The position numbers and the translations under genes are program-made. A DNA stretch of 64,000 bases, from NCBI GenBank assembly GCA_027488905.1, contig JAIYAT010000020.1, forward strand, positions 246,490 to 310,489. Direction: 5' to 3'. This document shows positions 18,315 to 63,200 of the stretch, in pieces (the stretch's first letter is position 1; each line of letters opens with the position of its first letter). This DNA is from Bacteroidota bacterium. Its GTDB lineage: Bacteria; Bacteroidota; Bacteroidia; UKL13-3. The notes beneath the pieces were generated by a model. That model saw nothing but the letters and a program-made list of their open reading frames with translations, ran no database searches and was not told where the DNA came from.

Positions 18315-18424
18315 TTTATTTGACTTCAAATCAATTTAATTTTCTGGCCAAAACATTTTTGGGATAACTTGTGCTTGGTTCGTCGTTCTATTTTACTTAA
18401 TTCGTTATCCCAAAAAAAAATTGA

Positions 18425-19015: not shown

Positions 19016-19017
19016 TT

Positions 19018-20298
19018 ATGGAAAACACTACTGGTTTCATTGGCATTGCGGTTATTCTTGGAATAGCATTTTTACTTTCTAATAACCGTAAAGCCATAAA
19101 TTATAGATTGGTAGTTAGCGGCCTTGCCTTACAAACAGGTTTGGCACTTTTTATTCTTAAAACTAAAATTGGTTCAAACATCTTCTCTTATTTAGGTAAT
19201 AAAATAGAACTTCTCCTCAAACTTGCAGATAAAGGTGGTGAATTTGTGTTTGGTGGACTCATGAAACCAGAATTATTAAAGCCCATTTTTGGCGACCAAT
19301 ACAGTTTTCTGTTTATGTTCAAAATTATGCCTACTATTATTTTTGTGGCAGTTTTGGTGAGCATGGCTTATCACATTGGGTTGATGCAAATCATTGTTTC
19401 TTTCTTTGCTAGAATTGTACATTTCTTAATGCGAGTGAGCGGCAGTGAAGCACTTTCTAATGTTGCAAGTGCTTTTGTTGGGCAGGTTGAAGCGCAAATT
19501 ATGATTAAACCCTACCTAAATACCATGACCATGAGCGAACTTTTAGCCAGCATGAGTGGCAGTATGGCTTGTATTGCTGGAGGGGTTATGGCTGTTTATA
19601 TTTCTATGGGAGTCCCTGCTCCATACCTACTTGCAGCTAGCATTATGGCCGCGCCAGGCGCTTTGGTAATTTCTAAAATTGTTTGGCCAGAAACTGAAGA
19701 ATCGCCAACTAAAGGCGATATTAAACTTGAAGTAAAAAAATCTCATGCCAATCTGCTAGATGCTATAAGTCATGGCGCTTCTGATGGATTAAAAATATCA
19801 CTCAACGTTATAGCCATGTTAATTGGATTCATCGCCATCATCGCTTTAGCAGACGTAATTCTTGGGAAAGTAGGCACTATTTTGGCCGGAATTGGACTAT
19901 CACTCGATTTTGTTGGCATACAAATGGCTTCCTTAAGCCTAGACCAAATCTTTGGAAGCTTCTTTTCTATGTTCGCATGGGCAATGGGGGTTCCTCAGCA
20001 AGATATTCAAACCGTAGGCTCACTTATGGGAAACAAGTTGGTCATAAATGAATTTGTAGCGTATGCTAAGTTAACACCTATGATTAGTGCTGGCTCATTA
20101 GCCCCAAAATCAGTGGTAATTGCTAGCTTTGCTTTGTGCGGGTTTGCTAATTTTAGCTCTATTGCCATTCAGGTAGGTGGCATTGGAGAACTTGCACCTT
20201 CAAGGCGTGCCGACCTAGCCAAGCTTGGATTTAAAGCGCTTATATGTGGTACTTTGGCTTCTTACCTGAGTGCTACACTTGCAGGCATTATGATGTAA
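19018..20298 (+). CDS. nupC: Concentrative nucleoside transporter, NupC family
   Basis: 426 aa polytopic membrane protein. The N-terminus GFIGIAVILGIAFLLSNNRKAINYRLVVSGLALQ and the overall organisation match the CNT/NupC family. Confidence 0.75.
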   Translation: MENTTGFIGIAVILGIAFLLSNNRKAINYRLVVSGLALQTGLALFILKTKIGSNIFSYLGNKIELLLKLADKGGEFVFGGLMKPELLKPIFGDQYSFLFMFKIMPTIIFVAVLVSMAYHIGLMQIIVSFFARIVHFLMRVSGSEALSNVASAFVGQVEAQIMIKPYLNTMTMSELLASMSGSMACIAGGVMAVYISMGVPAPYLLAASIMAAPGALVISKIVWPETEESPTKGDIKLEVKKSHANLLDAISHGASDGLKISLNVIAMLIGFIAIIALADVILGKVGTILAGIGLSLDFVGIQMASLSLDQIFGSFFSMFAWAMGVPQQDIQTVGSLMGNKLVINEFVAYAKLTPMISAGSLAPKSVVIASFALCGFANFSSIAIQVGGIGELAPSRRADLAKLGFKALICGTLASYLSATLAGIMM

Positions 20299-36351: not shown

Positions 36352-36370
36352 TTAATATTCTAATTTAAAA

Positions 36371-36409
36371 AGCCTGCCATAAATATTTATGGCAGGCTTT
36401 TTTTTGCAT
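36371..36409 (+). terminator. Rho-independent terminator
   Basis: aagcctgccataaatatttatggcaggcttttttttg: a 15-bp stem followed by a T-run. Confidence 0.75.
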
Positions 36410-41973: not shown

Positions 41974-42486
41974 ATGAACGATAAAATTACCCTAGACCGC
42001 ATTAAATTAATGCATCCCTTGCTTCGCGCAGAAGTAACAGAAATGTACCATGAAATTTGTTTGGCCTTAACTGGCAAAGCCATTTGCAGGTTTGCGTATA
42101 CCCTAAGAACCTTTAAAGAGCAAGACGAATTATTTGCCATTGGCCGAACCAAGCCCGGCAAAAAAGTTACCAATGCCAAAGGAGGCCAAAGCTACCATAA
42201 CTATGGCTTGGCGTTTGACATTGTATTGTTAGTAGACACCAAAGGAAATGGCAAGTTCGACAAGGCGAGTTGGGAAACCAATGTAGACTTTGACCGCGAT
42301 GGCCGAGCAGATTGGCATGAAGTAGTTAGCATCTGCAAACGCTATGGCTGGGAATGGGGTGGCGACTGGAAATTCACCGACCTCCCACACTTCCAAAAAA
42401 CCATGGGAAAATCTGTCGTGCAATTAAAACAGTTGTTAGATGCCGGTAAGTTAGCTGTCAAAAACACTACTTATCCTTTGTTATAA
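41974..42486 (+). CDS. Peptidase M15 (D-Ala-D-Ala carboxypeptidase / phage-endolysin-like L-Ala-D-Glu peptidase) family protein
   Basis: ...GQSYHNYGLAFDIVL... (S-x-H-x-x-G-x-A-x-D zinc site) and ...GWEWGGDWKFTDLPHFQ (D-x-x-H) are M15 metallopeptidase signatures. A terminator-like hairpin lies at 42516-42545. Confidence 0.65.
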   Translation: MNDKITLDRIKLMHPLLRAEVTEMYHEICLALTGKAICRFAYTLRTFKEQDELFAIGRTKPGKKVTNAKGGQSYHNYGLAFDIVLLVDTKGNGKFDKASWETNVDFDRDGRADWHEVVSICKRYGWEWGGDWKFTDLPHFQKTMGKSVVQLKQLLDAGKLAVKNTTYPLL

Positions 42487-44671: not shown

Positions 44672-45112
44672 ATGACATCAGAAGAACTTAGAAAAATTTT
44701 CAATCAAAAGAAACAGAAAATAGAAAGAACTGTTAGCAAGAAAGGAATCGTAAAAGAAAAACTTGTTGAAGGCTTCGAAAAAACAACTTTTGAAGAATTT
44801 CAAACTTGGTTTAAAATTTCTAAATATCAAGATGGTTGTAATTACTGCGGTACAAGTTCTATAAGCACACATAAGCTATTCAATGATGCTATTTCAGGTG
44901 CAAGACATAATTGGACTAGGGGAGGAAAAAGAGGAAAAAGACTTGAATTAGACAGAGTTGATCCCTCCAAAAAATATGATGAACTTCAAAATCTTGTATG
45001 GTGTTGCTATTGGTGTAATAATGCCAAATCAAACTTTTTCACTAAAGTTGAATTTGAACCAATTGCAAAGGAGATTGGAAAAGCAATAAAGAAAATGATA
45101 GAACAGCATTGA
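44672..45112 (+). CDS. HNH endonuclease-like protein
   Basis: CNYCG...H...N...WCCYWCNNAKSN: two Cys pairs flanking His/Asn in an HNH-like zinc-finger arrangement. Sits at the left edge of the defence island. Confidence 0.5.
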   Translation: MTSEELRKIFNQKKQKIERTVSKKGIVKEKLVEGFEKTTFEEFQTWFKISKYQDGCNYCGTSSISTHKLFNDAISGARHNWTRGGKRGKRLELDRVDPSKKYDELQNLVWCCYWCNNAKSNFFTKVEFEPIAKEIGKAIKKMIEQH

Positions 45113-45271: not shown

Positions 45272-47683
45272 ATGATAGATAAAAAGTCCCTTTCTGAAAG
45301 AGATATATGCACCAAGTTTATTACCCCTGCGGTTGAGAAAGCGGGATGGAATAGACTGACGCAGTTATTGGAGGAAGTTTCGTTCACGGATGGAAAAATT
45401 TATGTGAGAGGTAAACTGACTGCAAGAGGAAATAAAAAACGAGCCGATTATATTCTGTATTACAAACCCAATATTCCTATTGCCATCATTGAGGCCAAAG
45501 ACAACAAGCATTCTGTTAGAGCGGGTATTCAACAGGCTTTGGATTATGCTCAAATACTTGATATCCCTTGTGTTTTTAGTAGCAATGGGGATGGCTTTTT
45601 GTTTCACGACCGTACCGCTACAGATGGTAATATTGAAACTGAAATTGGCTTAGATGATTTTCCAAGTCCCGAACAACTTTGGGAGAAATACAAAATTTAC
45701 AAAGGCATCGCAACGCCATCCGCTGAAAAGATTGCTTCACAAGATTATTATTTTGATGGTTCAAACCGAAAACCAAGATACTACCAACAAATTGCAGTAA
45801 ACAGAACTGTGGAAGCCATTGCCAACGGACAAAATCGTATTATTTTGGTAATGGCAACAGGTACTGGAAAAACTTATACTGCTTTTCAAATCATTCACAG
45901 ACTTTGGAAAAGTGGTGCAAAAAAACGCATTCTGTTTTTGGCCGACCGTAACGCATTAATTGACCAGACTCGCAGAGGCGACTTTAAACATTTTAAGGAT
46001 AAAATGACGGTGGTAAAGCACCGACAAATTGATAAGAGCTATGAAATCTATTTGGCATTATACCAAGGCTTATCTGGTACTGATGAGGATGCAAATGTGT
46101 ACAAACAATTTTCACCAGACTTCTTTGACTTGATTGTTATTGACGAGTGCCACCGAGGAAGTGCAAAGGAAGACAGCAGTTGGAGAGAAATTTTATCCTA
46201 TTTCAAAAACGCAACACATATTGGTTTAACTGCTACGCCAAAAGAAACCAAAGAAACAAGCAATACAGAATATTTTGGCGACCCAGTTTATACTTATTCC
46301 TTAAAACAAGGAATTGACGATGGTTTCCTTGCTCCCTATCGCGTAGTTAGAATTGGATTGAATATAGATGCTGAGGGTTGGCGTCCCGACCAAGGTAAAA
46401 CAGATAAAGATGGAAACGAAGTTGAAGATAGGGTTTATAACCGCAAGGACTTTGACCGAAATTTAGTAATAGAAGAACGCACAGAATTGGTTGCAAAAAA
46501 ACTCACTGAGTTCTTAAAAGGCTATGATCGTTTTGCAAAAACCATTGTGTTTTGTGTAGACATTGACCATGCTGAACGCATGCGAACGGCTTTGGCCAAA
46601 CATAATGCTGATTTGGTGGCAGAGAATTACAAGTATGTCATGCAAATTACAGGCGACAATGATGAAGGCAAACGAGAATTAGATAACTTCATCAACCCCG
46701 AAGAAAAATATCCTGTGATTGCCACTACCTCTGAATTAATGACAACAGGTGTGGATGCACAAACCTGTAAAGTAATTGTATTGGATGCCAATATCAATTC
46801 AATGACCAAGTTCAAACAAATCATTGGCAGAGGCACTCGCATCAATGAAGAATATGGTAAGCTTTATTTCACCATTCTTGATTTTAGAAACGCAACCGAT
46901 TTGTTTGCCGACAAAGATTTTGATGGTGACCCAATTCGTGTAAAGCCTGTTTCGCAAGACGAAGATTTATCATTGGTAGTAATTGAAGAAGAAGAAAATT
47001 CAGTAACCGTTTTAGACGAAGCCACAGGTGAGGAAGTGGTATTTGAAAAAGTTAAAATCCGCTATCCAGATGGCTCACCACTTGATGGAAATTGGGTAGC
47101 AAGAGATAAAAAGGGTTATAGAGAAAAAGTGTATGTAAACGGTGTGGATGTATCTGTTTTGGTGAGCCGTGAAATGTATTTCGACCAACACGGTAAACCC
47201 ATCACAAGCAGTTTAAAAGACCATACCAAAGATATTATCAAAGAAAAGTTTGCTTCGCTCGACGACTTTTTAAATAAGTGGAATTCCACCGACCGCAAAG
47301 AAGCCATCATTGCAGAATTGCAAGAACAAGGAGTAATGGTAGAACCCTTGTATGATGCCGTAAATAAAGAAGTGGATTTGTTTGATTTGATTTGTCATGT
47401 GGCTTTTGACCAACCCCCATTAACAAGGAGAGAAAGAGCCAACAACGTAAAGAAGCGAAACTACTTTACCAAATATGGCGAACAGGCCAAAAAAGTATTG
47501 GAAGCCTTATTAGATAAATATGCTGATGAAGGCATTACCAATATTGAAAATATAGAAGTGTTAAGAATTAATCCATTTGATTCTTTTGGATCACCTTTGG
47601 AAATCATCAACGAGTTCGGAAGTAAACAAAATTACTTTGCTGCCATCAAAGAACTGGAGACAGAACTATACAAACAGGCCTAA
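45272..47683 (+). CDS. hsdR: Type I restriction enzyme R subunit (short form, 803 aa)
   Basis: N-terminal PD-(D/E)xK nuclease region (ADYILYY...IAIIEAKD). SF2 helicase motifs (MATGTGKT Walker A; VIDECHR DEAH box; GLTATP motif III; later TTSELMTTGVD/QIIGRGTR motifs V/VI). Confidence 0.85.
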   Translation: MIDKKSLSERDICTKFITPAVEKAGWNRLTQLLEEVSFTDGKIYVRGKLTARGNKKRADYILYYKPNIPIAIIEAKDNKHSVRAGIQQALDYAQILDIPCVFSSNGDGFLFHDRTATDGNIETEIGLDDFPSPEQLWEKYKIYKGIATPSAEKIASQDYYFDGSNRKPRYYQQIAVNRTVEAIANGQNRIILVMATGTGKTYTAFQIIHRLWKSGAKKRILFLADRNALIDQTRRGDFKHFKDKMTVVKHRQIDKSYEIYLALYQGLSGTDEDANVYKQFSPDFFDLIVIDECHRGSAKEDSSWREILSYFKNATHIGLTATPKETKETSNTEYFGDPVYTYSLKQGIDDGFLAPYRVVRIGLNIDAEGWRPDQGKTDKDGNEVEDRVYNRKDFDRNLVIEERTELVAKKLTEFLKGYDRFAKTIVFCVDIDHAERMRTALAKHNADLVAENYKYVMQITGDNDEGKRELDNFINPEEKYPVIATTSELMTTGVDAQTCKVIVLDANINSMTKFKQIIGRGTRINEEYGKLYFTILDFRNATDLFADKDFDGDPIRVKPVSQDEDLSLVVIEEEENSVTVLDEATGEEVVFEKVKIRYPDGSPLDGNWVARDKKGYREKVYVNGVDVSVLVSREMYFDQHGKPITSSLKDHTKDIIKEKFASLDDFLNKWNSTDRKEAIIAELQEQGVMVEPLYDAVNKEVDLFDLICHVAFDQPPLTRRERANNVKKRNYFTKYGEQAKKVLEALLDKYADEGITNIENIEVLRINPFDSFGSPLEIINEFGSKQNYFAAIKELETELYKQA

Positions 47684-47749
47684 ATAAGGTTAATAATCCC
47701 TCAAAATGAAATTTGCAATTATCAAATCTGATTATATATTTGCCATCAA

Positions 47750-47800
47750 CATGCTCACCCCGCTTCCCGTAGAACAGCGCGCTCAGGGTGAGCTTTTTAT
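47750..47800 (+). terminator. Rho-independent terminator between hsdR and the Abi gene
   Basis: gctcaccccgcttcccgtagaacagcgcgctcagggtgagctttttattttt: a stem gctcaccc/gggtgagc followed by a T-run. Confidence 0.65.
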
Positions 47801-47812
47801 TTTTATAGAGGT

Positions 47813-48709
47813 ATGAGTAAAATTAACTACAATAAGCCTCCTCTTTCCTATACAGATCAAATTATCCAGCTAAAACAGCGTGGACTAATTATTAGCAACG
47901 AGCCTAAAGCACTTCACTTACTTGAGAATATCAGTTACTATAGGCTAAGTGGATATTGGTTTCCCCTTCTAGCTGATAAATTTGCTCATCAGTTCAAACC
48001 TAATTCCACTATTGAAACAGCTTTTAATTTATACTGTTTTGACAGAGAATTGCGTCAACTAATGCTTGCCGAAACTGAAAAAATTGAAGTGGCCATCCGA
48101 GCCAAATTGAGTTACGTTTTTTCGCATGCAAACGGCCCTTTTTGGTTTCAGAACCCAACTAATTTCACTAATCCTGGGAAGCATGCTACCTCATTTGCTA
48201 AAATTGAAGAGGAGTTTCAACGAAGTGATGAAGAGTTTATACATGCCTTTAAGGCAAAATACAATAATCCAATACCTCCCAGTTGGATGACATTGGAAAT
48301 AACATCATTTGGCACCTTATCCATTTTGTACAAGAACCTGAGACCTACCCATCAAAAGCGAGAAATTGCGCACTATTTTGGGTTGCCAGATAAAGTTTTT
48401 GAAACCTGGATTCACAGCATCGTTTACCTTCGTAATGTGTGTGCACACCACACCCGTTTGTGGAATAGAGCCATGAGTATTCAACCACAAATCCCAAGAT
48501 CACCGAGAAAACAATGGTTAAATAATGTAAATGTAGCTAATAACAGAACTTATTTTATTTTAAGTATGGTCGCCTATTTATTGCAAACCATAAATCCAAA
48601 CAATCGGTTTACTGATAAATTTAAAGCGCTTTTACACAAATATCCAAACGTAGATACCAGAGCACTAGGCTTCCCAATTGACTGGGAAAATGAACCACTT
48701 TGGAAGTAA
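47813..48709 (+). CDS. Abi_2 (AbiD/AbiF-like) abortive-infection family protein
   Basis: ...LENISYYRLSGYWFP... and ...YLRNVCAHHTRLWN match the conserved Abi_2-family motifs. Inserted between hsdR and hsdM. Confidence 0.7.
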   Translation: MSKINYNKPPLSYTDQIIQLKQRGLIISNEPKALHLLENISYYRLSGYWFPLLADKFAHQFKPNSTIETAFNLYCFDRELRQLMLAETEKIEVAIRAKLSYVFSHANGPFWFQNPTNFTNPGKHATSFAKIEEEFQRSDEEFIHAFKAKYNNPIPPSWMTLEITSFGTLSILYKNLRPTHQKREIAHYFGLPDKVFETWIHSIVYLRNVCAHHTRLWNRAMSIQPQIPRSPRKQWLNNVNVANNRTYFILSMVAYLLQTINPNNRFTDKFKALLHKYPNVDTRALGFPIDWENEPLWK

Positions 48710-48721
48710 CAAACAAATCAT

Positions 48722-50158
48722 ATGAGCAACATATCAGGCATCATAAAAAGCATTCAAAACATCATGTGGCAAGACACTGGCTTAAATGGCGATGCACAAC
48801 GCATTGAGCAATTGGGCTGGATGCTTTTTTTGAAAATATTTTCGGACAAAGACAAAGAATTAGAGTTACTAGACGACAAATACACCTCCCCCATCCCTGA
48901 TAAATTTCATTGGGTAAAAGAAAAAGGAAATTGGGCAGGTGATGATGAAGGAATGACAGGCGATGAATTGTTGGAGTTTGTAGACAGACAATTGTTTCCT
49001 GCCCTGCGCAATTTGGATTTGAGCACAGGGAACCAACGTGCAGTGATCGTACGAGAGGTTTTTGAAGGCAATAACAACTATATGAAAAGCGGCATCAACA
49101 TTCGCAAGGTGTTGAACAAGCTCAACGAAATTGATTTTAACATTGCCAAAGACCGCCATGCTTTTGGCGAATTGTATGAAACCATTTTAAAGGAATTGCA
49201 AAGTGCTGGAAAAAGTGGTGAGTTTTATACGCCACGTGCCATTACGCAGTTCATTACCGAAACCATAAATCCACAATTGGGTGAAAAAGTATTGGACCCT
49301 GCTTGCGGAACGGGCGGCTATTTGACTTGTGCCATTGAGCATTTAAAGAAACAAGCCAAAAATGTGCAAGAACGCAAAAGCATTGAAGACAATATTGCAG
49401 GTTGGGAATACAAACCTTTACCCTATCTGCTGGCAACAACCAATCTCATTTTACACGACATAGAAATACCCAACATCAAATTTGGCGATGCCTTAGACCA
49501 ACCCTTGAGTAACTTTACCGAAAAGCATCGGGTAAATGTAATATTGGCAAATCCACCATTTGGTGGCATTGTAGCCAATAACAACGAAACTAATTTCCCA
49601 CAAACGTATCGTACCAAGGAAAGTGCCGACTTGTTTTTGATCCTAATGATTCATTTACTAAAACAAGATGGACGAGCAGGAATTGTATTGCCCGATGGCA
49701 GTTTAACAGGCGATGGCGTAAAGCAACGCATTCGCCAAAAATTATTGGAAGATTGCAACCTGCATACCATTATCCGTTTGCCTAATTCTGTGTTTCAGCC
49801 TTATGCAATGGTGGCTACCAACTTATTATTTTTTGACAAAGGTTTGCCCACCAAAGACATTTGGTACTATGAGCACCGCATGCCTGAAGGTTACAAATCC
49901 TACAACAAAACAAGACCCATACAAGCCAAAGAGTTTGAACCCATAACCCAATGGTGGAACAAGCGCACCGAAAGCGATATTGCCTGGAAAGTAAATATTA
50001 AAACCATCATCCAAAGAGGCTATGATTTGGATATAAAAAACCCAACCAAACCCGAAGAGGAAAAGGAATACAACAGTGCCGAATTGATGGAAATGCTACA
50101 CACTTCATTTGAGAAAAGTAATTTCTTGTTGAACCAATTAAAACAAGCGGTGAAATGA
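48722..50158 (+). CDS. hsdM: Type I restriction-modification N6-adenine DNA methyltransferase subunit
   Basis: N-terminal HsdM domain (IMWQDTGLNGDAQRIEQLGWMLFLKIF). SAM-binding LDPACGTGG. Catalytic ILANPPFG. Confidence 0.9.
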   Translation: MSNISGIIKSIQNIMWQDTGLNGDAQRIEQLGWMLFLKIFSDKDKELELLDDKYTSPIPDKFHWVKEKGNWAGDDEGMTGDELLEFVDRQLFPALRNLDLSTGNQRAVIVREVFEGNNNYMKSGINIRKVLNKLNEIDFNIAKDRHAFGELYETILKELQSAGKSGEFYTPRAITQFITETINPQLGEKVLDPACGTGGYLTCAIEHLKKQAKNVQERKSIEDNIAGWEYKPLPYLLATTNLILHDIEIPNIKFGDALDQPLSNFTEKHRVNVILANPPFGGIVANNNETNFPQTYRTKESADLFLILMIHLLKQDGRAGIVLPDGSLTGDGVKQRIRQKLLEDCNLHTIIRLPNSVFQPYAMVATNLLFFDKGLPTKDIWYYEHRMPEGYKSYNKTRPIQAKEFEPITQWWNKRTESDIAWKVNIKTIIQRGYDLDIKNPTKPEEEKEYNSAELMEMLHTSFEKSNFLLNQLKQAVK

Positions 50159-51462
50159 GATTAGAATTTATTGAATTGCCTTTTCTCAGTTTAGGAACAT
50201 CAGGCAAGATTAGAACAGGTTCTGGCTTTAATTCTAGTGATTTTACAACTGAGGGAGTTCCCCTTATAAAAATTGGCAATATCAAAAACAACTTAATAGA
50301 TATCAATGATTGCTCATTTATTTCAGAAAACAAGAAGAAAATAAACTTAACCAAAGAAGATGATTTGTTAATTGCAATGCGAGGAGCCACAAGTGGTAAA
50401 CTTGGTATTGTTTCTAGCCAATTTGCTGACTGCTTTTATGTTGGAAGTATTGGTAATCTTGGAAAAATAAATGAAAAATTGATTTATCGTCCATTTATAA
50501 AATATATTGAACAACAATTATATGATATATTAAAGACCGAAGCAAAAGGAACTGCTACTCCAATGGTTTCAATTGGAATGTTAGAAAAATTCAAATTAAT
50601 TATTCCCAAAACGAAGGAACAACAAGAATATTTATTTGAACTTCTTGAAAGCAGAAAAAGACAAGTTGGCAAACTCTCCACCGAACTCACCCACCAACTC
50701 ACCCTCGTAAAAAAGCTCCGACAGCAATTATTGCAAGATGCAGTGCAAGGCCGTTTCGACTTCGCTCAGGGACCAGAGGAAGACGAACCAGCAAGTGAAT
50801 TGCTAAAAAAGATAAAAGCCGCCCTTCGACAAGCTCAGGGTACGAAAAAAATTAAAGAACTACCACCCATCAAACCCGAAGAAATTCCATTTGAAATACC
50901 TGAAAATTGGGTATGGTGTAGGTTGGGGGAGATAATCACACTAATATCTGGTCAAGACCTAACTCCTTCTGAGTACTCTGACAAAGACAATTTCGGTCTA
51001 CCTTATGTCACAGGTGCAAGTAATTTAGATAAGGGTAATGTAATTTTAAATAGATGGACGAATAATCCAAAATCAATTGCAATTGAAAGTGATTTATTAT
51101 TGACATGTAAAGGTTCAGGTGTTGGGAAAATGGCGATATTAAAAGAGAAGAAGGTGCATATTGCCCGACAAATAATGGCTCTACGAAGTAGCTTCATACC
51201 AAATGAATTTTTAAAAACCTTTTTGGAACTACAGGTTGAAAACTTCAGAGGGAAAGCTAAAAGCTTAATTCCTGGTATTGATAGAGATATTGTATTGACT
51301 TTAACATTTCCGCTTCCTCCATTAGCCGAACAACACCGCATCGTTCAAAAATTAGATGAATTGATGCAGTATTGCAATGAGATGGAAGCAAGCATCAAAC
51401 AAAGCCAAGCGCAAAATGAGAAGTTATTGCAACAGGTTTTGAGGGAGGCGTTGAGGAAATAA
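50155..51462 (+). CDS. hsdS: Type I restriction-modification specificity subunit
   Basis: 4-bp overlap with hsdM. Two target-recognition domains separated by conserved helical spacers (…LVKKLRQQLLQDAVQG… and C-terminal …LAEQHRIVQKLDELM…QVLREALRK). Confidence 0.85.
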   Translation: MRLEFIELPFLSLGTSGKIRTGSGFNSSDFTTEGVPLIKIGNIKNNLIDINDCSFISENKKKINLTKEDDLLIAMRGATSGKLGIVSSQFADCFYVGSIGNLGKINEKLIYRPFIKYIEQQLYDILKTEAKGTATPMVSIGMLEKFKLIIPKTKEQQEYLFELLESRKRQVGKLSTELTHQLTLVKKLRQQLLQDAVQGRFDFAQGPEEDEPASELLKKIKAALRQAQGTKKIKELPPIKPEEIPFEIPENWVWCRLGEIITLISGQDLTPSEYSDKDNFGLPYVTGASNLDKGNVILNRWTNNPKSIAIESDLLLTCKGSGVGKMAILKEKKVHIARQIMALRSSFIPNEFLKTFLELQVENFRGKAKSLIPGIDRDIVLTLTFPLPPLAEQHRIVQKLDELMQYCNEMEASIKQSQAQNEKLLQQVLREALRK

Positions 51463-51486: not shown

Positions 51487-52092
51487 ATGCCAATATCAGT
51501 TCAAAAATTAGAAGACACCTTTCAATTAAAATATTTAAAAAGTATTAAATGGGGGAGCACATTTGTTGAAAATAAAAATGGTGTCTATATTATATCTTCG
51601 AGTAAAGACAAAGATTTCTTACCTAAGCATGATGTTGAGATTGTTATCAATGATAAACAGATTGATTTATGGTTAGCTAATGCACCAAACATACTTCTAA
51701 ATGAAAAGACACCTTCCAAAACAGATTTAATAAATCAGCTAAAGAATTTTTGGTTACCTGATGAAACAATACTTTATATAGGAAAAGCTGAAAAGCAAAC
51801 ATTATCAGAAAGAATAGGTCAGTTCTTCAATCATAAATTTGGCAAAAAAAGCCCTCATAAAGGTGGTTATTGGTTAAAACTTTTAAAAAATATAAATGAC
51901 CTTAACATTCATCTATATGAAACTAAGGAATCCCACATTATTGAAGAAGAAATCTTAAAAAAGTTTATAGAACAAGTCTCGGAACCAACAAAATTAAAAT
52001 TAATTGATAAGAACTTATATTTACCATTTGCAAATTTGCAATTACGCTCTGGAGTAATTAAATCACATGGACTTAAATATCATTACCAATGA
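51487..52092 (+). CDS. Hypothetical protein (possible divergent GIY-YIG-like nuclease)
   Basis: 201 aa, 25 bp after hsdS. Carries GVYIIS ... ILYIGKAEKQTLSERIGQFFNH, reminiscent of GIY ... YIG-x-NLxxRlxxH, but the GIY-YIG spacing is much longer than canonical, so this is weak. Confidence 0.3.
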   Translation: MPISVQKLEDTFQLKYLKSIKWGSTFVENKNGVYIISSSKDKDFLPKHDVEIVINDKQIDLWLANAPNILLNEKTPSKTDLINQLKNFWLPDETILYIGKAEKQTLSERIGQFFNHKFGKKSPHKGGYWLKLLKNINDLNIHLYETKESHIIEEEILKKFIEQVSEPTKLKLIDKNLYLPFANLQLRSGVIKSHGLKYHYQ

Positions 52093-52181: not shown

Positions 52182-53279
52182 ATGAATAATAAACAAGCAA
52201 ACATATGTTTTTTATTGGGAGCCGGAGCTAGCTACCAGGCCTTGCCAGTTGTAAATGAGATTCCTAGAGAACTAGAAAAGATGATGGAATTTATTGTGAT
52301 TTTTGAGTTAAACAAATCTGCTCTAACCTATGATCCAATAAGAGACCAGTTAAATAATTTTTATTCAAAGTTAGAAGAAATAAAAAAGCACAGTTCTATA
52401 GATACATTAGCAAGGAAGTATTGGCTAAAAAGAGAAACATGTGAACATGGTACAAGCGAATATGTTTATTGGAATAAAGAATATGAATACATCAAAAGGA
52501 TTATAAGTTGTTTATTAACCTACCGTCGCTTAACTATAACTACATTATCTGATAATTTTTCAAATGAAATTACAACATTTGATAACAAGCAAAGGATGGC
52601 CTTTAAGCTTGATCCAAGATATGATAGTTTATTGGCATCTATACTAACCCCTAAGTTGCGCTTGCCAGAAAACATTAGCATTATATCTTGGAATTATGAT
52701 TTACAATTAGAACAGGCCTTTTCCTTTTATGAAGGCCAATCCGATTTAATTGAAGTTGGAAAGAAATTAAACATAGGTTACGAAACCCATGAGGAAAGTT
52801 CAATTATTAAATTAAATGGAACTGCTTGGTTTAATCCAGCAGGTTCAATACAGGCGTTTTATGAATACAACACAGAATCACATAACGTATTTTGGAATGC
52901 ATTAAAAGATTCTCACGATCCTAACATAAAAACAGGGATTAAGTTTTCTTGGGAACAGGACGAAATAATTTCACATTATAGAGAACTTGCAGCAAAAAAA
53001 ATAACTGAGGCAGACTTTGTTATTGTAATTGGGTATTCTTTTCCAATTTTTAATAGAGAAACAGATATTCAAATATTTTCAAAATTACCATCAAGTGCTA
53101 AATTAATCATACAAGGTCCTGAAGAACAAGGAAACAGAATTGTGAGTCAAATGGACAGTATTAAGAAAGGTTTGAGTAAAAAAACGAGTGTCGTTTCCAA
53201 CCTTGACCAATTTTACTTACCTAACGAATATTGGCAACCAAATAACTTGAGTTCAGCTAAAATCTATTCAGTTTTTTAA
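52182..53279 (+). CDS. SIR2-like (SIR2_2 / PF13289-type) domain protein, candidate NADase defence effector
   Basis: N-terminal ICFLLGAGASYQA (xLGAGAS NAD-binding). IISWNYDLQLEQAF (NYD motif). C-terminal DFVIVIGYSFPIFN (IGYS motif). At the position of the usual KLHGS catalytic His the sequence reads KLNGT. Confidence 0.6.
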   Translation: MNNKQANICFLLGAGASYQALPVVNEIPRELEKMMEFIVIFELNKSALTYDPIRDQLNNFYSKLEEIKKHSSIDTLARKYWLKRETCEHGTSEYVYWNKEYEYIKRIISCLLTYRRLTITTLSDNFSNEITTFDNKQRMAFKLDPRYDSLLASILTPKLRLPENISIISWNYDLQLEQAFSFYEGQSDLIEVGKKLNIGYETHEESSIIKLNGTAWFNPAGSIQAFYEYNTESHNVFWNALKDSHDPNIKTGIKFSWEQDEIISHYRELAAKKITEADFVIVIGYSFPIFNRETDIQIFSKLPSSAKLIIQGPEEQGNRIVSQMDSIKKGLSKKTSVVSNLDQFYLPNEYWQPNNLSSAKIYSVF

Positions 53280-53395
53280 GATTCAATTTAAGTTAAATTA
53301 ATAGAATTTATATATTCTAAGGAAATACAAGAAACAATTTCATTGATAGTAGTTAATTTAGCGAAAAATATTAGAAATGGAAATAGATTTATAAA

Positions 53396-53740
53396 GATAT
53401 TGGGGGCAGAGGGTCGAAATGTTACGTTTTGCAAAATTTTACCACGTCTAGGAAATACGCTAGCTGGGAAAGTCAATACTATTTTCCAAATTTTCCTGTA
53501 AAGGAAACAATGAGGAAAGTGTTATCAACAGATTAATAACTGTTGAAGCCTTGAAGTTGTGTTTGCGGATGTATTTTCTGAGCATATATAATGTGTTTAT
53601 GGATTTAAGTACAAAGATAACAATTTCTATACCTGAATTGAGTAGCGTTGCCTCCCTTATAAAAGGGTTAAAGCTTCGACAGAGCATGTACATTTCAAAC
53701 CTGCTACATACTATTTTACTAGTATCTGCCCCCTTTTTTT
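53396..53740 (+). ncRNA. Candidate structured ncRNA (retron msr/msd-like or DRT-associated) between the SIR2 and RT genes
   Basis: A ~470-bp non-coding gap. The GC-rich 9-nt inverted repeat GGGGGCAGA (53402-53410) / TCTGCCCCC (53725-53733) brackets ~315 nt and ends 18 nt before the RT start codon, like retron a1/a2 repeats. Internal hairpins include ttttcctgtaaaggaaa and cccttataaaaggg. The small ORFs 53288..53742 look spurious. Confidence 0.3.
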
Positions 53741-53751
53741 AACTTGATAAA

Positions 53752-55275
53752 ATGGAATTAGAAAAGTGGTTTAAAACAAAAAAGTATCCTCATATAGGTT
53801 TACCAATAACAATCAAAGATTATTATTGGGTAAAAGAATATGTTGAAAATTTTGATAAAGTTCGATGCCATAGTTTTCTTCCATTAATACATAAAATTAT
53901 TTTACAAAGAAGATTCAGAGCAGACAATTCTTTACCAGATAGAAACCCAAGTGGAAAGAGGAAAAGATTTATTGACAAGCCAAAAGTTCGAGATATTTTC
54001 TTCGCTTCACATTTAGATTCTTTAGTATTTTCAAAGTACAACGAAATATTGGCAACTGCATATGAAAGTTATATTGAAAATAAGAATTTCAATGAATCTG
54101 TAGTTGCATACCGAAAAATTTCAATTTCAAAGGGTTCTGAAAATAATAAATGCAACATTGATTTTGCAAAAACTACTTTTGAATTTATTCAAAAGAACAA
54201 TACAAAAAATCTTACTGCTATTGTTTCAGACGTTACTGATTTTTTCCCAAGTCTGAATCATAAAATCTTAAAAAAACAATGGACAAGTGTTTTAAACGAA
54301 ACTACTTTACCCAAAGACCATTATAATATATTTAAGGCTATAACTAATATCAAATACATTGAAGGCGACCAGTTATTTGAAAGTTATGGCAAAACTATGA
54401 TTGTTGAAAATGGTGTTCCAAACTCTTCAACTAAAACTACTTTTAAAAGGAAGGAAATAAAAAGTAGTAAACATTTTAAAGAAAAAAATTCCGTTGCTTA
54501 TTGTGAAAAGGATGAATTCCTAAAGAACAATTTAAATTTAATTAAATCAAAAAACAACATAGTTGGAATACCTCAAGGAAGTCCAATCAGTGCAACATTG
54601 GCAAATATCTATATGTTGGAGTTTGATCAAGAAATATTTGATATTGTTTCTTCAATTGGTGGATTTTACCAAAGATATAGTGATGATTTAATTATTATTT
54701 GTGAGCAACAATTTGAAGATGATATTATTAAACTAATCAGAGATAAAATTGATAACCTTGTTGATTTGAAAATAGAACCAAAAAAGACTAAGATCTTTCG
54801 TTTTGAGGAAGTAAAAGGTAAATTTATTGGATTTGAAATTGATGAAAAAACTAAAGCACCAAATCATAATAAAACACTGGCTTATTTAGGATTCTCATTT
54901 GACGGACAAAGGGTTTTGATAAAAACTTCTGGTTTTTCAAAGTTCTATAGAGCAATGAAAAGCTCGTTTAAAAAATCAACTTCTTTAGCAATACATAGTA
55001 AAAATCCCGACAGAAGTTTATTCAAGTCAAGGCTATACAAGCGATTTACCCATAGAGGAGCAAAACGAAAACTTATTTATAGACCATCAAAGGCAGACAA
55101 AAAAGTTTATGAAAAAACGAAAGAGTATTATTGGGGAAATTATCTTAGCTATATAAACAAAGCAAATGAATCAATGAAATCAATAAACGGTGACAATATT
55201 ATCAAAAGGCAAAGCAGAAAGTTTTGGAAGAAATTTAATGACTTAATGAAATTTCATGAATCAAGACTTAAATAA
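53752..55275 (+). CDS. Reverse transcriptase (defence-associated / retron-like RT)
   Basis: RT motif 1-2 RKRFIDKPKVRDIFFASHLDSLV. Motif 3 AIVSDVTDFFPSLNH. Motif 4 GIPQGSPISATLANIYMLEFD. Motif 5 YQRYSDDLIIIC (YxDD). Motifs 6/7 LKIEPKKTKIFRF. About 90 aa insertion between motifs 3 and 4. C-terminal ~140 aa extension. Confidence 0.85.
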   Translation: MELEKWFKTKKYPHIGLPITIKDYYWVKEYVENFDKVRCHSFLPLIHKIILQRRFRADNSLPDRNPSGKRKRFIDKPKVRDIFFASHLDSLVFSKYNEILATAYESYIENKNFNESVVAYRKISISKGSENNKCNIDFAKTTFEFIQKNNTKNLTAIVSDVTDFFPSLNHKILKKQWTSVLNETTLPKDHYNIFKAITNIKYIEGDQLFESYGKTMIVENGVPNSSTKTTFKRKEIKSSKHFKEKNSVAYCEKDEFLKNNLNLIKSKNNIVGIPQGSPISATLANIYMLEFDQEIFDIVSSIGGFYQRYSDDLIIICEQQFEDDIIKLIRDKIDNLVDLKIEPKKTKIFRFEEVKGKFIGFEIDEKTKAPNHNKTLAYLGFSFDGQRVLIKTSGFSKFYRAMKSSFKKSTSLAIHSKNPDRSLFKSRLYKRFTHRGAKRKLIYRPSKADKKVYEKTKEYYWGNYLSYINKANESMKSINGDNIIKRQSRKFWKKFNDLMKFHESRLK

Positions 55276-56420: not shown

Positions 56421-56712
56421 AATGCCCCAGCGGGGCAACCTGTTTGTAGAACCGAAATAATCACAATTTAATTAGCTCCGTAGGAGCGACCTGTTAATAA
56501 TTACCAACAAACAGAACGCTCCTATAGAGCTGTAAAAGCAATAATTTATAATATGCCCCATCGGGGCTAATTGTTTGTAGAACCGAATCAATCACAATTT
56601 AATTAGCTCCATAGGAGCGGCCTGTTAATAATCCCCAATAAACAGAACGCTCCTATGGAGCTTTGTTTAAATACAAATCCTTTCCTACAAACAGGATGCT
56701 CCTATGGAGCTT
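56421..56712. repeat. Two tandem ~113-bp hairpin-rich repeat units (56421-56532 and 56552-56665) plus a partial third (56681-56712)
   Basis: The units are about 85% identical. Each contains the GC hairpins gcccc(a/t)(g/t)cggggc and (a/c)gctcc(g/a)taggagc(g) / cgctcctat(a/g)gagc, and the inverted pair ctgtttgtag...caaacag. Confidence 0.85.
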
Positions 56713-57257: not shown

Positions 57258-60200
57258 CTATTTCACCTCATACACCACAAACTTAATGCGCTCTTGGCTG
57301 CCTTCTTTTGTGGTAAGGGTTAGCATATAGTTACCTGCTTTTAGGTGGCCTAGCTCGAAGTTTTGGCTTTGGTTCAACCCGAAATACTTATTGCCTTCCC
57401 AAGCTAACCTACCCGCAATATCATAAACTGCCAATTTACAATCTCCAAGTTCATTTAGTGCCTTCACATAAAAGCTTCCGTCATTTGGGTTAGGATACAA
57501 TTGTAATCCTTGTTGCGCAAGGGCTTGGTTCAAGCCAACCGGATTAGGATTACAAATTGAATCGTCTACTACTTTTACCACCAAACTAAATGAATCGCGG
57601 CAACCCGCATCCGAAACACTGGTTAAGGTTACTTTGTAATTACCCACCTGATTATACTTTTTACCATAAATGGAAGTGTTCAAAACATCTGTGTTTCCAT
57701 CTCCAAAATCCCAAGTGGTGCCATTGATAAATCCTGAACCTATGAGGTAAGAAGCATTTACAAAATTATAGTTTTGAGTAAGCAAACATTCTACGGTATC
57801 TAAGGTTACAAAGCGCGAAACTGGTTTTGGTTTACCTGTATTATTTACTTGTAAAAACAAGGTATCAGAAATACTGCTGCAACCTTTTGCATCAATTGCG
57901 GCCAATACTACCGGGAAATTACCCGTAAAGGCATAGGCATGAAATACACTCGAATTTTTAACCAAAGGGGTTGAATACCCATCCCCAAAATCCCATAAAT
58001 ACTCAACGGCATTCGAACTTAAGGCATTAAATCTATATCCAGTATTACAAGGTGCACCCGTTTGTAAGGTAAAGGTAATGGCAGCACCCGGACCAGATTG
58101 GTCAATCACATTAATGTTTTTGCTAATCAACCTGCGACATCCATTGCTTAAGGCAACTTCTAACACAACTGGGAATACTCCGCCATTCTTATAAGTATGA
58201 CTAACATCGGTTGCAATGGAATCCTTACCATCTCCAAAAGTCCAAAAGTAGGAAGCGTTTAAGGTCGACTCGAAACTCAAGTTGGGTTCAAACTGAACTG
58301 TTTTAACACATGGCAATTGTGTGGCAACAAAATCTCCATTAACATCAGAGATGATAAAATTGGAAGAGAAGGTATCTGAACACAAGTTTTCAACTGCAAC
58401 TACTTTTAAGGTATGTTTTCCTTCACTTAAGCCATTTAAAACAAATGAGGTTCCTAACACTTGTGGGGCATTATTGTCTAAAATAAAATAAGTGTCTGTC
58501 ATGCCTGTACTTAAATTTACAAGCTGCCTGCTGTTTGAGCAAGTATCTGTAATGGCTAAACTAAAATCTGCTTTAGGACCATCAAAACCATACAAGGTAT
58601 CTAAAGAAGATAAAGAAGAACACAAGCCTTTTTTGGTTACCAATAACTGAACATACCCCGTATCTGTTTTGTCAAAGGCTACTCTTTGAACCCTCGTGCT
58701 GGAGTCTGTCCAATATTTTCTGTCTCCTAACCATAAGTAGGTGTAATCAGCGCCATTAACTAAAGGTGTGAGTGTAAATACATTTTGGCAATTGTTGGCT
58801 TGAACCAAGAAAGATGAATTGGGAGAATTAACAATTTCAATATTCTCTTGATACGTAAAAGTATCATTGATGGTAAGGCTAACTGCATAAACACCATCTG
58901 CTGCATACGTGTGTGAAGGAGAAGCTAAATTTGAAGTATCCCCATCTCCAAAGCGCCATTTGTAGGAAGTGGCTAGTATGGATGAATCTAAAAATTGAAC
59001 TGTTCTGTTGTTACAATTAAAACCCGTTACGTTAAAATTTGCTACCGGAATAGGCAATACTTCTATATTGGCAATGGCAGTATCCATGCAACCTGTAGAA
59101 CCTACCACGGCCAACATAACTTGGTATTTCCCAGGATTTGCAAACCTCCTATTAAAGACAAAAGAGTTTACCGAATCAATGGTACCATCCCCAAACAACC
59201 AACGATTAGAAACTACCCAACCAATGCCCAAAGAAGAACTGTTATTTAAGAAGTTAAAAGAATGGTCCACAAAATTTTGAATAGGGTCATTTGGCAAGAA
59301 AGAAGCAATTGGACCATAACTGCCAAATGGTAAGTTGATAGTTCTGGAAACCGTGCTGATACAACCATTTTTATTAGCAATTAAAATCACCGCTAAATCT
59401 CCTGTATCAGAAAATGTTTTAACAGGGCTCAAACGATTGTCGGATGTACCATCAGGGAAATTCCAAGTAAAGCGCATGGCGGTATCTGCGGCGCTTAAAT
59501 TGCTAAACTTAATTCTATTGCTGCAAGAATTTGGTGCAATGCCATAGGTAAAATCTATTGGCAATTGGGTTGAACCAAGTCCGGCAACAATAGGCTTCTT
59601 AATACTAACCGCACAACCACTTTCTGAGGTAGTGGTTAGAATTACGGTATCCACTCCAGGATTGATAAAATTAAACACTGGATTGGTAGCATTTGAACCT
59701 CCTTTTATGGGCGAACCAAACTGCCAAGCATAACTCATTCTAGCCAAAACATTGGTAGTGGAGAGGTTTTGAAAACTCACTAATTGATTGCAATTACTTG
59801 CTATAAATTCAAAATTTGGGGTAGGTATAGAAATATTAATAACATCTGCAACGGTATCTGCGCAATTGCCATTGTACACCGCCATTCTAATTAAATGGTA
59901 ACCAAAAGAAAGGTTATTAAGTGCAGCACTAGCACCTATTGAAACATAAGGCGCACCATCTAAACTATACGTATAAGATAACAAGCCAGGACTACTTAAG
60001 TTATTTATCACCCTGTTAGTAGAGCAATAGGTTTGCCCCACAGGAGGAACAACCTCAAAAGCTGCTGTGGCAGAAGGCACAAAAACAGCCGCATTAAAGG
60101 TTAAGGGAGTTGCATTGATTGGGCATCTTCCATTAGAGGCAACTTGAAGGGTAACGGTTTTTAATCCAGCACTACTATAACCCCTGCTGGGCACCCTGAG

Positions 60201-63200
60201 GAAAGTGTCACTTCCAAAACTGCCACTTGAAAATCCCCAATGGTAGTTGTATTGATTACTAATTGGCGCGCCAAAAAATGAATATACATTGTCACATGCC
60301 GCAACCGCAGATAGTGTTCCAACTACTGGCGTGGTAGCAACCGTAACCATTCTTTCACTGGAATCGGTTCCGTTAATGATTAACCTAACCCTGTAAATGC
60401 TATCCTTTGCATAAAGATGGGCTGGGCTGGCCAAGGTGGAAGAATCGCCATCGCCAAAATACCATTTGTAGGAAACCACCAAGGTGGAAGAATCTCTAAA
60501 TTGAACCAAGCGATTGCTGCAGGCGTTTTGAACAAAACCAAATTTTGAGGATACCACTGGGTAAACATTGATATTGGCTGTATAAGTATCTATGCAACCT
60601 AAGGTATTGGTTGCGCTTAAAGAGATTAAGTAATTGCCTGGAGAAGCGTACCTTTTGTCGTAGATAGAGCTGTTAGTTGAATCTAAAGTTCCATCTCCTA
60701 AATTCCATTTATACTTAATGTTCCAAGCATTATTCCCTAAGTGTGAACTGGTATTTACAAAAGAAAAATTGTGATTATTTATAGGCATGCTCACTTGGTT
60801 CAAACTAAACCTTGCGGCTGGACCAAAAGCGCCAGAATCTATTTGAATGATTTTAGTGGCAGTAGAACTACAACTACCATTGCTAACCGTTAGGTTAACT
60901 GTATAGGTTCCTAACTTAGCAAAACCATGTATTGGGTTTGCGAGGTTACTAGTAGTGGTATCGCCAAAATCCCAAGCATAAGAGAACCCAGTACCCGTGG
61001 TATTGGTAAATTGAATGATGCTTTTACAGGTTGTGCTTGCCAGACTAGTGTTAAAACTAGCATTTGGACCAGTACCCGTTCCCACCACAACTCTTCTTCC
61101 AATGGTGGCAGAACAACCACTAGTACTGGTTAAGGTTAAGAAGGCAGAATCTGCTCCCGAAACCCCAAAGTTAAAACTTGCATTTGGCGTATTGGCAGTT
61201 CCTTTGAGTGGTCTCCCAAAAAACCATTGGTAGCTTAACGCACCATTGTCTGTGCTAGAAGAGGTGGTTAAAAAATTAACTTGTTGGTTGCAAGAACTAG
61301 GAATTGCAATAAAGGATGGTATTGGAGCGCTAATGGTGAAAGGGAAATAAAGGGTATCAGAACAAAAGCTTTTGCTGCCCACCACCTGAATGAGGTGAGT
61401 GCCTGGTGTAAGTGCATTAACCGTGTCTAGGGCATTCAAAGTATCGAAAGGGCCATTGTCTATGCGCCACAAATAAAGGTTTGCGCCTACCCCATCGTTT
61501 CTAATGATTCGCGTTGTTGCACATAAGTTGTTATTTGGTGCATACACAACGGCTTTGGTAGAAAATCCATTTGGAGCGATGGTGGGTGTAAAAATAAGTT
61601 GCGAAGGAGAAATAGGACATTTGCCCTTATTGAAAACTGTTAGTGCTACACCCGTTGGGCCAGGCGTAGTATAGGAGCGTGTCGGAATTCTAAGGGTGGT
61701 ATCACTGCCTGTTCCGCCCGTAAATTGCCAATGATAGGTATAATTGTTTCCAGCAGGTGCGCCAAAGAAATTATATTCATAAGCACAATTTACTTGGTAA
61801 CTGATAGCAGCAACAGGCGCATGATTAATAATCTCGATGTTTTTACCCGCGGTAAGGTTTCCATTGATGGTGAGTTTAACCAAATAAATAGAATCTTTTA
61901 AATAGGTATGCACGGGGTTTCTTTGGGTTGAGGTATCGCCATCGCCAAACTCCCAAAGCCAAGAACCAGCAAAGTAAGAAGAATCTAAAAATTGAATGGT
62001 TCTGTTATTGCAACTAGGCGCTTGAAACCCAAACCTTGCATATACGTTTGGTTCAACCCGAACCCCTTTGTAAATAGTGTCTTTGCAACCCAAATTGTTG
62101 GTGGCAATTAAACGTACCCAATAATTTCCAGTATCAGGATACACTTTGTTATAGACAAAAGTATTGCTCGAAAAACTTCCATCGCCAAACTCCCATTGGT
62201 AATTGCTATTAAAGCCTGCACCGAGGTGTTTGCTGCTATTGGCAAAATCAAAAGATTGATTGGTGAAAAGTTGCGTATCTTGGTTAATACTAAAATTAGC
62301 AAACGGTCCTCTGGCTGCAGAATCTACCCTTATGGTTTGCAAGGAAGCGGTTGTACAAGTGCCATTGAAAGCGTATAAAATCACCAAGTAATTTCCAGTA
62401 TCTGCATAAGATTTAGCAGGATGGGTTGAAGTGCTAAAGGTGCTATCCCCAAAGTTCCATAAGTAAGAAGTAGCGCCATTGCTAGAAGTATTGGTAAATT
62501 GAATACGATTGTTACAAGGCTGATTGGCCTGCCAAACAAAGGATGGATTTGGTGTGGTGCCATTGCTTATGCTGATGGCTTTTCGGACGGTATTTGAACA
62601 GCCATTTGCGGCAGTTACAGTCAACGTAACCGTATCAATACCTCCGCTTCCAAAATTAAACAAAGGGTTAGGCAAAGTAGAAGTACCTTTTTGGGGTGAA
62701 CCAAAAGTCCAAAGGTAACTCAATGCTAAAGGCTCTTCGGCAAATGAGGTATTGGTAAATTGAACCGTGGCATTACACGTGCTCGCTTGCTCGTTAAAGG
62801 CAGCCGTGGTATTAGAAATCACAAAACTTGTTACCGCGGTATCAAAGCAAATTCCATTGTGTGCGGCTAAACGTAGGTGGTAAGTTCCTTTACTTAATCC
62901 ATTTAAATTGAAAGACGCAGTAATGGGTAAAAACGGACCGCCATTTACACTTAAAGTATAAGCAGATAGGCCGCTGCTGCTTGTATTGGTTATAATTCTA
63001 CTATTAGAACAAAAGTTATTTCCTGGTGCACTCACTGCAATTCCTGCTACCACAATTGGGGCATAAAGGTTCGGTTTGAACCTAAGCGCATTTGAAGCAA
63101 CTGAACAACGATTACCAGCCGTAAGGATAAGTTGTACTTGAGCTGTATCAGCAAGGAGATATTTTCGCGTGGCAAGTCTTGAGGAAGAATCAGAACCCGG

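Follow-up and report, generated by a model that had tools for sequence, protein, structure and literature searches.

AbiF proteins are the toxins of type III toxin-antitoxin (TA) systems, in which a non-coding RNA (ncRNA) encoded upstream blocks the HEPN site of the toxin (PMC13064643). The antitoxin is a small RNA encoded just upstream of abiF, with a promoter and a terminator of its own, and abiF is expressed by read-through of that terminator (PMC13064643, PMC12373285). For the RCd22-abiF pair of C. difficile, the short RNA is mostly terminated, a measured read-through yields the abiF mRNA and abiF is without its own promoter (Saunier et al., 2025, PMC12373285). A second validated pair, PbAbiF-AbiFr, comes from a Prevotellaceae bacterium (PDB 8VZ6; Zilberzwige-Tal et al., 2025, as summarised in PMC13064643 and PMC12737573), and C32 and U38 lie in the inhibitory bulge of its RNA (PMC12737573). 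Here we describe a type I restriction-modification (R-M) locus in which an abiF gene and an AbiFr-like structured RNA stand between hsdR and hsdM. It occupies positions 45272 to 51462 of a 64,000-nucleotide stretch, called the window throughout, from a Bacteroidota bacterium of the UKL13-3 lineage (GCA_027488905.1, contig JAIYAT010000020.1, positions 246,490 to 310,489).

Genes lodged in R-M loci have been reported repeatedly. Abi2/AbiD/AbiF were tabulated in 2013 as embedded in R-M operons (PMC3710099), rlo genes were described within Campylobacter jejuni type I loci (Miller et al., 2005, as cited in PMC11411939), and other genes embedded in type I loci include PrrC in EcoprrI (PMC12707154) and TgvAB in V. 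cholerae VPI-2. Embedded genes have also been surveyed under the heading of 'guilt-by-embedding' (Payne et al., 2024, bioRxiv 10.1101/2024.01.29.577857). The embedding of Abi genes, the presence of accessory genes in type I loci and the RNA antitoxin of AbiF (2025) are all previously known, and the present locus leaves the general understanding of R-M or Abi systems unchanged. The rlo, PrrC and TgvAB genes resemble abiF of the window in being accessory defence genes between hsd genes, and RloA/RloB-like, GmrSD-like and other cargo is found at the same junction in relatives of the window locus. PrrC differs in that it is hardly ever found outside type I loci and is under the control of the R-M complex, whereas AbiF has its own RNA antitoxin and is found mostly outside R-M loci.

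The locus is very likely a standard type IB operon into which, between hsdR and hsdM, a self-contained AbiF type III TA module of ~1.05 kb, consisting of the RNA and the HEPN RNase gene, has been inserted. Directly visible, and pointing to this reading, are the gene identities, an RNA that is conserved, structured, preceded by a promoter box and linked to abiF, a clean insertion when the locus is set beside a close relative, and a junction that is a hot spot for cargo. The features concerned are the following:

45272-47683, + strand: hsdR, 803 aa, EcoAI-family (type IB) restriction subunit
47712-47742, + strand: Bacteroidetes-type promoter of the ncRNA, with the -33 element TTTG at 47712-47715, a 19-nt spacer and the -7 element TATATTTG at 47735-47742
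47748-47804, + strand: AbiFr-like structured ncRNA, predicted type III antitoxin, ~55 nt, previously described as a terminator
47753-47760 and 47786-47793, + strand: outer stem of the ncRNA, 8 bp
47761-47763 and 47777-47779, + strand: inner stem of the ncRNA, 3 bp
47764-47776, + strand: apical loop of the ncRNA
47780-47785, + strand: 3' bulge of the ncRNA, CGCUCA
47794-47804, + strand: U-tract of the ncRNA
47813-48709, + strand: abiF, 298 aa, Abi_2 / AbiD-F family HEPN RNase toxin
48722-50158, + strand: hsdM, 478 aa, N6-adenine methyltransferase subunit
50155-51462, + strand: hsdS, 435 aa, specificity subunit with two target-recognition domains

On the map of open reading frames (ORFs), abiF and hsdM are separated by 12 nt and hsdM overlaps hsdS by 4 nt. 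The original prediction gave the same spacer and overlap, and its ORF coordinates agree with the map exactly. Its principal observation, a type I R-M locus that harbours an Abi_2 gene between its hsdR and hsdM, is confirmed by the map together with the profiles, and strong profile matches were obtained for each of its four family assignments (HsdR, Abi_2, HsdM and HsdS). Scoring of the 298-aa protein against the hidden Markov model of Abi_2 (PF07751), which had been named in advance as the way in which the assignment could fail, returned a match of 197.4 bits (E=3.4e-58; cut-off 25.6) over profile positions 1-184 of 184. The protein also matches AbiD of PADLOC (4.6e-81) and aligns at full length, over residues 3-298, with PbAbiF (PDB 8VZ6_A, E=3.9e-68). 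Its HEPN motif of the Rx4H type, R207-NVCA-H212, is intact, is invariant in 27 homologues and aligns with RNSCCH of PbAbiF. Abi_2 was the sole domain found in the Pfam search, which returned no nucleoside triphosphatase (NTPase) domain.

The RNA was studied in homologous loci. A set of 84 AbiF loci was assembled from GTDB genomes, in which each species was represented once, and from some metagenome contigs, and 55 regions upstream of AbiF homologues, whose proteins are 48-90% identical to that of the window, were aligned. In this aligned set the 150 nt upstream of abiF are much more conserved than the proteins, with a mean column identity of 88% in the trimmed RNA alignment. A near-universal layout is apparent, which begins with TAnnTTTG, 5 nt, AACAUG, the outer stem, CCGC or CCCC, and UUCCCGUnAGAACA, and continues with GCG or GGG, CGCUCA, the outer stem again, the U-tract, ~10 nt and the ATG. 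In the window the region between hsdR and abiF reads GCUCACCC...GGGUGAGC and then UUUUUAUUUUU, the hairpin plus UUUUUAUUUUU occupying 47753-47804, and the 3' end of the ncRNA lies 8 nt from the start of abiF.

Pairing across the 8-bp outer and 3-bp inner helices is standard in 604 of 604 pair cells in the 55 sequences, and compensatory changes on both sides occur in 7 of the 11 pairs (62 cells). None of 500 shuffles attained the observed pairing and covariation values, and pairing fell to 21-58% when the 3' partners were slid as a control. The same two helices were predicted independently by RNAalifold. Single-sequence folding of the intergenic region gave z=-1.6, which is not significant on its own, and the evidence for a structured RNA therefore comes from covariation and not from single-sequence folding. 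A scan for sigma-70 promoters and terminators gave counts not clearly above shuffled background and is uninformative for a Bacteroidota genome; it picked up merely the small inner GCUCA/UGAGC hairpin.

A covariance model of the RNA (R1) has one strong match in the window, at 47748-47800 (82.3 bits, E=9e-22). A second match at 36367-36404 (23.7 bits, both strands) was set aside as a generic terminator hairpin without the conserved core. Matches to R1 adjoin abiF in 76 of the 84 AbiF loci and are present in seven out of seven additional loci with the same cassette as the window, and the model had no significant match in 83 hsdR loci that lack abiF (887 kb; best E=0.22). Judged by this covariation and linkage, the hairpin is a covarying ncRNA of the Abi system that travels with abiF whatever the neighbours are. 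The 'strong hairpin terminator' assigned earlier to hsdR was thus right as to the hairpin and the U-tract, both of which are present, and is to be revised as to their ownership, because the element belongs to the abi module and is not simply the terminator of hsdR.

In four loci the RNA lies divergently on the strand opposite to abiF (L036 4806-4859, L066 7903-7956, L067 2014-2067 and L068 7900-7953), which marks it as a separate gene, as opposed to a leader. In these four, abiF is not expressible by read-through of the RNA and a different expression logic must apply.

Upstream of the RNA, at 47712-47742, stands TTTG-N19-TATATTTG, and no other full match to TTTG-N17-23-TAnnTTTG occurs on the + strand within 41-57 kb of the window. 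This arrangement follows the Bacteroidetes promoter consensus that Bayley and colleagues reportedly described in 2000. In 51 of the 55 homologous loci an exact TAnnTTTG box precedes the RNA core at constant spacing, the remaining four having near matches, and from this box we infer the transcription start of the ncRNA. The RNA core and the ATG are just 24-35 nt apart in the 55 loci, too close for abiF to have a promoter of its own between them, so that abiF would be transcribed by read-through of the RNA terminator. The scan of the + strand found no promoter-like box between abiF and hsdM either, and with a gap of 12 nt the co-transcription of abiF with hsdMS is plausible.

The exact PbAbiF gene was located on a public contig of 3.2 kb (L168). 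Upstream of it this contig carries, in this order, TAccTTTG, a 5' tail, an outer stem of 6 bp, an inner stem of 3 bp, an apical loop, a 7-nt 3' bulge and a U-tract, from which 8 nt lead to the ATG. With the RNA start assumed at ACUAGA, C32 and U38 fall in the 3' bulge. The two systems are alike in their ~300-aa Abi_2/HEPN proteins, which align end to end, and in the succession of a Bacteroidetes -7 box, a short 5' tail, an outer stem, a 3-bp inner stem, an apical loop, a 3' bulge of 6-7 nt, a U-tract and an ATG within ~10 nt. They differ in their surroundings, as no hsd genes are near PbAbiF on the 3.2-kb contig or on its 90%-identical relatives (L169, L170), whereas the module of the window is embedded. 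The C. difficile AbiF-RCd22 system is likewise composed of an Abi_2 toxin and a promoter-driven upstream ncRNA ending in a terminator. RCd22 differs in having ~100-130 nt and two abiF motifs, in contrast to the one hairpin of ~55 nt in the window, and the C. difficile pair belongs to a prophage lysis module and is not part of an R-M operon (PMC12373285).

Several points weigh against reading the window module as an AbiF type III TA system. The window AbiF and PbAbiF share an identity of only 39%. The RNA sequences have diverged, and R1 does not score the PbAbiF RNA, its search of the PbAbiF loci having yielded no significant match; the link to the validated RNAs is therefore one of architecture and position, not of sequence homology. 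RF03085, the Rfam abiF motif, was unmatched both in the whole window at the gathering score and over 47600-47900 at E<=10, where Rfam returned chance snoRNA-like matches alone. For the source organism we infer the transcription start, the efficiency of termination and the read-through. Finally, the hairpin may also end hsdR transcripts, in which case the earlier description is physically not wrong. By analogy, the RNA of the window is a positional and architectural counterpart of AbiFr, and not demonstrably its sequence homologue, and going by the Rfam and R1 searches the Bacteroidota RNA is a sequence family other than RF03085 in an analogous position.

The insertion itself is best seen against the locus with the closest HsdR (L165, GCA_027487655.1; 98% identical), which shares its chromosomal site with the window locus, the same VanY-like and giant PKD-repeat genes flanking both. 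The DNA is ~94% identical in the flanks, hsdR and hsdM (hsdM itself 92.6%). In L165 hsdR and hsdM are 6 nt apart without abiF, and positions 47675-48721 of the window are a clean insertion of ~1.05 kb relative to it. The HsdS genes align only in the conserved spacer and C-terminal regions; the recognition regions do not align, which indicates that the specificity differs. A search around the insert for direct or inverted repeats, such as transposition or site-specific insertion might leave behind, gave only short matches at chance level.

A wider set of 83 related hsdR loci was examined, with HsdR 76-98% identical to that of the window, and 74 of them showed both hsdR and hsdM. In the comparison proposed in the original prediction, whether Abi is variably present in relatives, abiF proved absent from L165 and occurred in none of the 83 loci. 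The two genes abut in 26 of the 74, and in 47 of them one to three ORFs, falling into at least 29 unrelated protein clusters, are inserted between hsdR and hsdM. The annotated cargo includes an IS200 transposase, GmrSD_N + Schlafen, Schlafen + HATPase_c_4, RhuM, AAA_21 + RloB, FRG, YhcG/DUF1016, HNH, Fic, PDDEXK_3, PDDEXK_4, 23S_rRNA_IVP, DUF4268 and RloA-like proteins. The hsdR|hsdM junction of this highly conserved EcoAI-type system is a hot spot for the insertion of cargo. Twelve of the 29 clusters are without a Pfam match (examples are L087 9415-9831, L112 2999-3826, L097 9476-10018, L107 6186-6551, L144 9384-10034, L102 4198-4881 and L125 2812-3603), and such Pfam-less cargo in L085-L164 provides candidates for new defence genes.

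This hot spot raises the question of neutral hitch-hiking, in which the module would occupy a permissive site with no effect on, or relation to, the R-M genes. The other cargo held by 47 of the 74 related loci at the same junction is what such a process would leave behind. The module does, however, place a promoter and a terminator-like hairpin at an otherwise 6-nt junction, where some effect on the hsdR:hsdMS ratio is hard to avoid, and the idea overlaps with the inserted TA module favoured here in that the module is autonomous in both. As an explanation in its own right we consider hitch-hiking highly improbable.

Apart from its cargo, the R-M locus is unexceptional. HsdR matches ResIII (3e-46), EcoEI_R_C (6e-38), HSDR_N and Helicase_C of Pfam, REase_I of PADLOC (1186 bits) and PDB 3H1T_A (E=7e-164). 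Against the NCBIfam equivalog NF046051 (restrict_EcoAI) it scores 1179.4 bits, the cut-off being 550, over profile positions 1-768 of 768. Its motifs are intact, with D59...E74-A-K76 as the PD-(D/E)xK motif of the nuclease and GTGKT197 (Walker A), DECH291 (DExH) and QIIGR516 (motif VI) in the superfamily 2 (SF2) translocase. HsdM matches N6_Mtase (1e-71), HsdM_N and MTase_I of PADLOC (6e-187) and carries the S-adenosylmethionine-binding motif DPACGTG192 and the catalytic motif NPPF277, and HsdS matches Methylase_S in two stretches and Specificity_I of PADLOC (1e-62). By these scores the window HsdR is an equivalog-level member of the EcoAI/FtnUII family (type IB), and the profiles and motifs together identify the locus as an ordinary EcoAI-family (type IB) type I operon.

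Two further statements about the operon had to be dropped. The gene order had been called non-canonical, and yet hsdR ahead of hsdMS is the arrangement of EcoKI and is found in all 74 related loci in which both genes are visible. The 803-aa HsdR had been called short, and it is of normal length for its family, the profile of NF046051 having 768 positions and homologues in more than 120 clusters at >=87% identity mostly measuring 795-811 aa. In EcoKI the order hsdR-hsdM-hsdS is accompanied by a terminator downstream of hsdR and, ahead of hsdM, by a second promoter (PMC12707154). The window operon has the order of EcoKI (type IA) and EcoAI (type IB), with an HsdR that is an EcoAI-family equivalog. 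In contrast to EcoKI, the cargo-free Bacteroidota relatives have hsdR and hsdM 0-7 nt apart or overlapping, which points to a tight operon without intergenic promoter or terminator as the ancestral state. By this comparison the intergenic promoter and terminator of the window locus, unlike those of EcoKI, appear to have been brought in with the AbiF module.

The relation of AbiF to R-M genes was assessed from its neighbours. No R-M-type gene lies within 8 kb in 62 of the 84 AbiF loci, and the remaining 22 have one; these figures are from jackhmmer, as phmmer with the Hsd proteins of the window under-counted them (~11 of 84). The RNA and abiF thus occur mostly without R-M neighbours, which makes the module autonomous. 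Type IIG-like methyltransferase fusions are among the 22 loci, as are several type I embeddings that are independent and differently arranged (L071, L078, L079 and L084), and free-standing RNA-abiF modules were seen directly downstream of genes for methyltransferase fusions of 970-1280 aa (type IIG or related) in L004, L005, L015, L018, L031, L033 and L066. This suggests that the association of AbiF with R-M recurs beyond type I. AbiF homologues looked up at >=72% identity (six proteins on seven distinct contigs with different flanks) all have the arrangement of the window, with hsdR-RNA-abiF, then hsdM, and hsdS where the contig extends far enough. In a neighbour-joining tree of 86 sequences the embedded AbiFs group as one clade, which points to a single acquisition with co-inheritance thereafter. 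They measure 298-304 aa, about as long as the free-standing ones, with no added domain.

These observations bear on the 'co-regulated layered defence' proposed earlier, which in its strict form would make the hairpin the terminator of hsdR and the Abi protein an accessory R-M subunit, co-regulated with hsdMS and, like PrrC, kept latent by the R-M complex until a phage inhibits restriction. The proximity of abiF to hsdM with no promoter box between them speaks for such a subunit, as do the retention of the embedded clade in the cassette down to 72% identity in seven loci with different flanks, the presence of AbiF homologues of distant lineages between hsd genes (L071, L078, L079, L084) and the precedent of PrrC (PMC12707154). 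Set against this, the hairpin accompanies abiF and is absent from the 83 abiF-less hsdR loci, where the typical hsdR-hsdM gap is 0-7 nt, and the same RNA-abiF pair occurs in the 62 loci without an R-M-type gene nearby. A guardian of the PrrC type was rejected on the latter count and on the presence of Abi_2 without an NTPase domain. The embedded AbiF is of normal length with no extra domain by which to dock onto the R-M complex, and an antitoxin of its own is already at hand. The lack of such a domain, the antitoxin and the usual absence of R-M genes around AbiF make a PrrC-like dependence on that complex unlikely. We regard an integrated subunit as improbable, and functional integration, which the original prediction implied, does not agree with the 62 R-M-free loci or with a junction that holds unrelated cargo elsewhere.

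Type III TA systems can stabilise DNA, and the main role of the pair might therefore be that of an addiction or stabilisation module, which would maintain the R-M cassette or the defence island by post-segregational killing and would not act in phage defence. This capacity, the high variability of the island between ~94%-identical relatives, which implies turnover to be resisted, and the stable retention of the embedded clade would all fit. Not one of 80 close hsdR relatives nevertheless has abiF, where strong addiction would predict persistence, and the neighbours of the module include further defence genes, namely a DRT2 reverse transcriptase gene and an ORF with a weak likeness to SIR2. Moreover, lactococcal AbiD, AbiD1 and AbiF were discovered as phage-resistance genes (PMC13064643). 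On balance an addiction role in place of defence seems quite improbable.

For the inserted AbiF TA module, a working scheme can be drawn by analogy, with antitoxin function, read-through and trigger carried over from the work on PbAbiF and C. difficile AbiF. The RNA would be transcribed constitutively and would mostly end at its own U-tract, and a minority of read-through transcripts would constitute the abiF mRNA, here also carrying hsdM and hsdS. The RNA would bind AbiF and block its HEPN active site, probably via the conserved 3' bulge. Phage infection would lower or displace the RNA, upon which AbiF would cleave RNA and arrest the cell (abortive infection). While the R-M enzyme would attack unmodified incoming DNA, AbiF would stand behind it as a second and independent line.

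Since the module has replaced the 6-nt junction of relatives by a promoter and a hairpin resembling a terminator, hsdMS is probably transcribed by read-through that starts at the hsdR promoter, at the antitoxin promoter or at both. In a stronger form of this argument, the embedded AbiF would be wired into the R-M operon, with hsdM and hsdS largely read through from the antitoxin promoter past a leaky terminator. We hold this stronger form to be doubtful. If it were true, the supply of methyltransferase and of toxin would be tied to one control point, a phage that shuts off transcription or attacks RNA would free AbiF and shift the R:M ratio together, and the monophyly of the clade and its retention to 72% identity would reflect selection for coupling.

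For annotation, the lesson is that where an Abi_2 gene of Bacteroidota directly follows a GC-rich hairpin with a U-tract, this element should be taken for a putative AbiF antitoxin RNA and not for the terminator of the preceding gene. The Bacteroidota AbiF RNA family is strongly conserved and covarying in the sampled loci and is invisible to Rfam 15, as RF03085 misses it. The by-products of the analysis are the corrected hairpin annotation, a covariance model for an RNA that Rfam lacks and a catalogue of cargo at hsdR|hsdM, which, in keeping with 'guilt by embedding', supplies a short list of candidates for defence genes.

The R-M locus is part of a variable defence island at ~42.5-57.2 kb of the window, between the VanY-like gene (41974-42486) and the giant PKD-repeat gene (57258-63983, minus strand); a scan for tRNA genes at the island boundaries found none. 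The counterpart in L165 (4.7-20.3 kb) has kept hsdR and hsdM, and its cargo is wholly different (DUF1508, KTSC, HATPase_c_3, DUF4365, DUF488, HTH). Just upstream of hsdR in the window, 44672-45112 (+) is a 146-aa ORF with a weak match to PtuB of PADLOC (E=2.5e-4) and no Pfam or NCBIfam family. Downstream of hsdS, 51487-52092 (+) encodes a 201-aa protein with no family match apart from a weak one to GIY_YIG_2 (E=0.0096), and 52182-53279 (+) encodes a 365-aa protein with weak SIR2-like matches (PADLOC Aga_SIR2, 5.8e-8); both genes, lying between hsdS and DRT2, may be uncharacterised defence cargo. The DRT2-type defence reverse transcriptase gene at 53752-55275 (+) matches Drt2 of PADLOC (1.8e-138) and Drt2 of NCBIfam with 339 bits, below the cut-off of 390. 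Ahead of it, 53280-53751 comprises 472 nt without a long ORF and could encode a DRT2 template ncRNA; Rfam had no match in this interval. Finally, a 131-bp tandem repeat of 1.8 copies, containing the GC hairpin TGCCCCAGCGGGGCA, lies at 56422-56662, and many more copies of the same 131-bp unit are present in L165 at 18307-19542.

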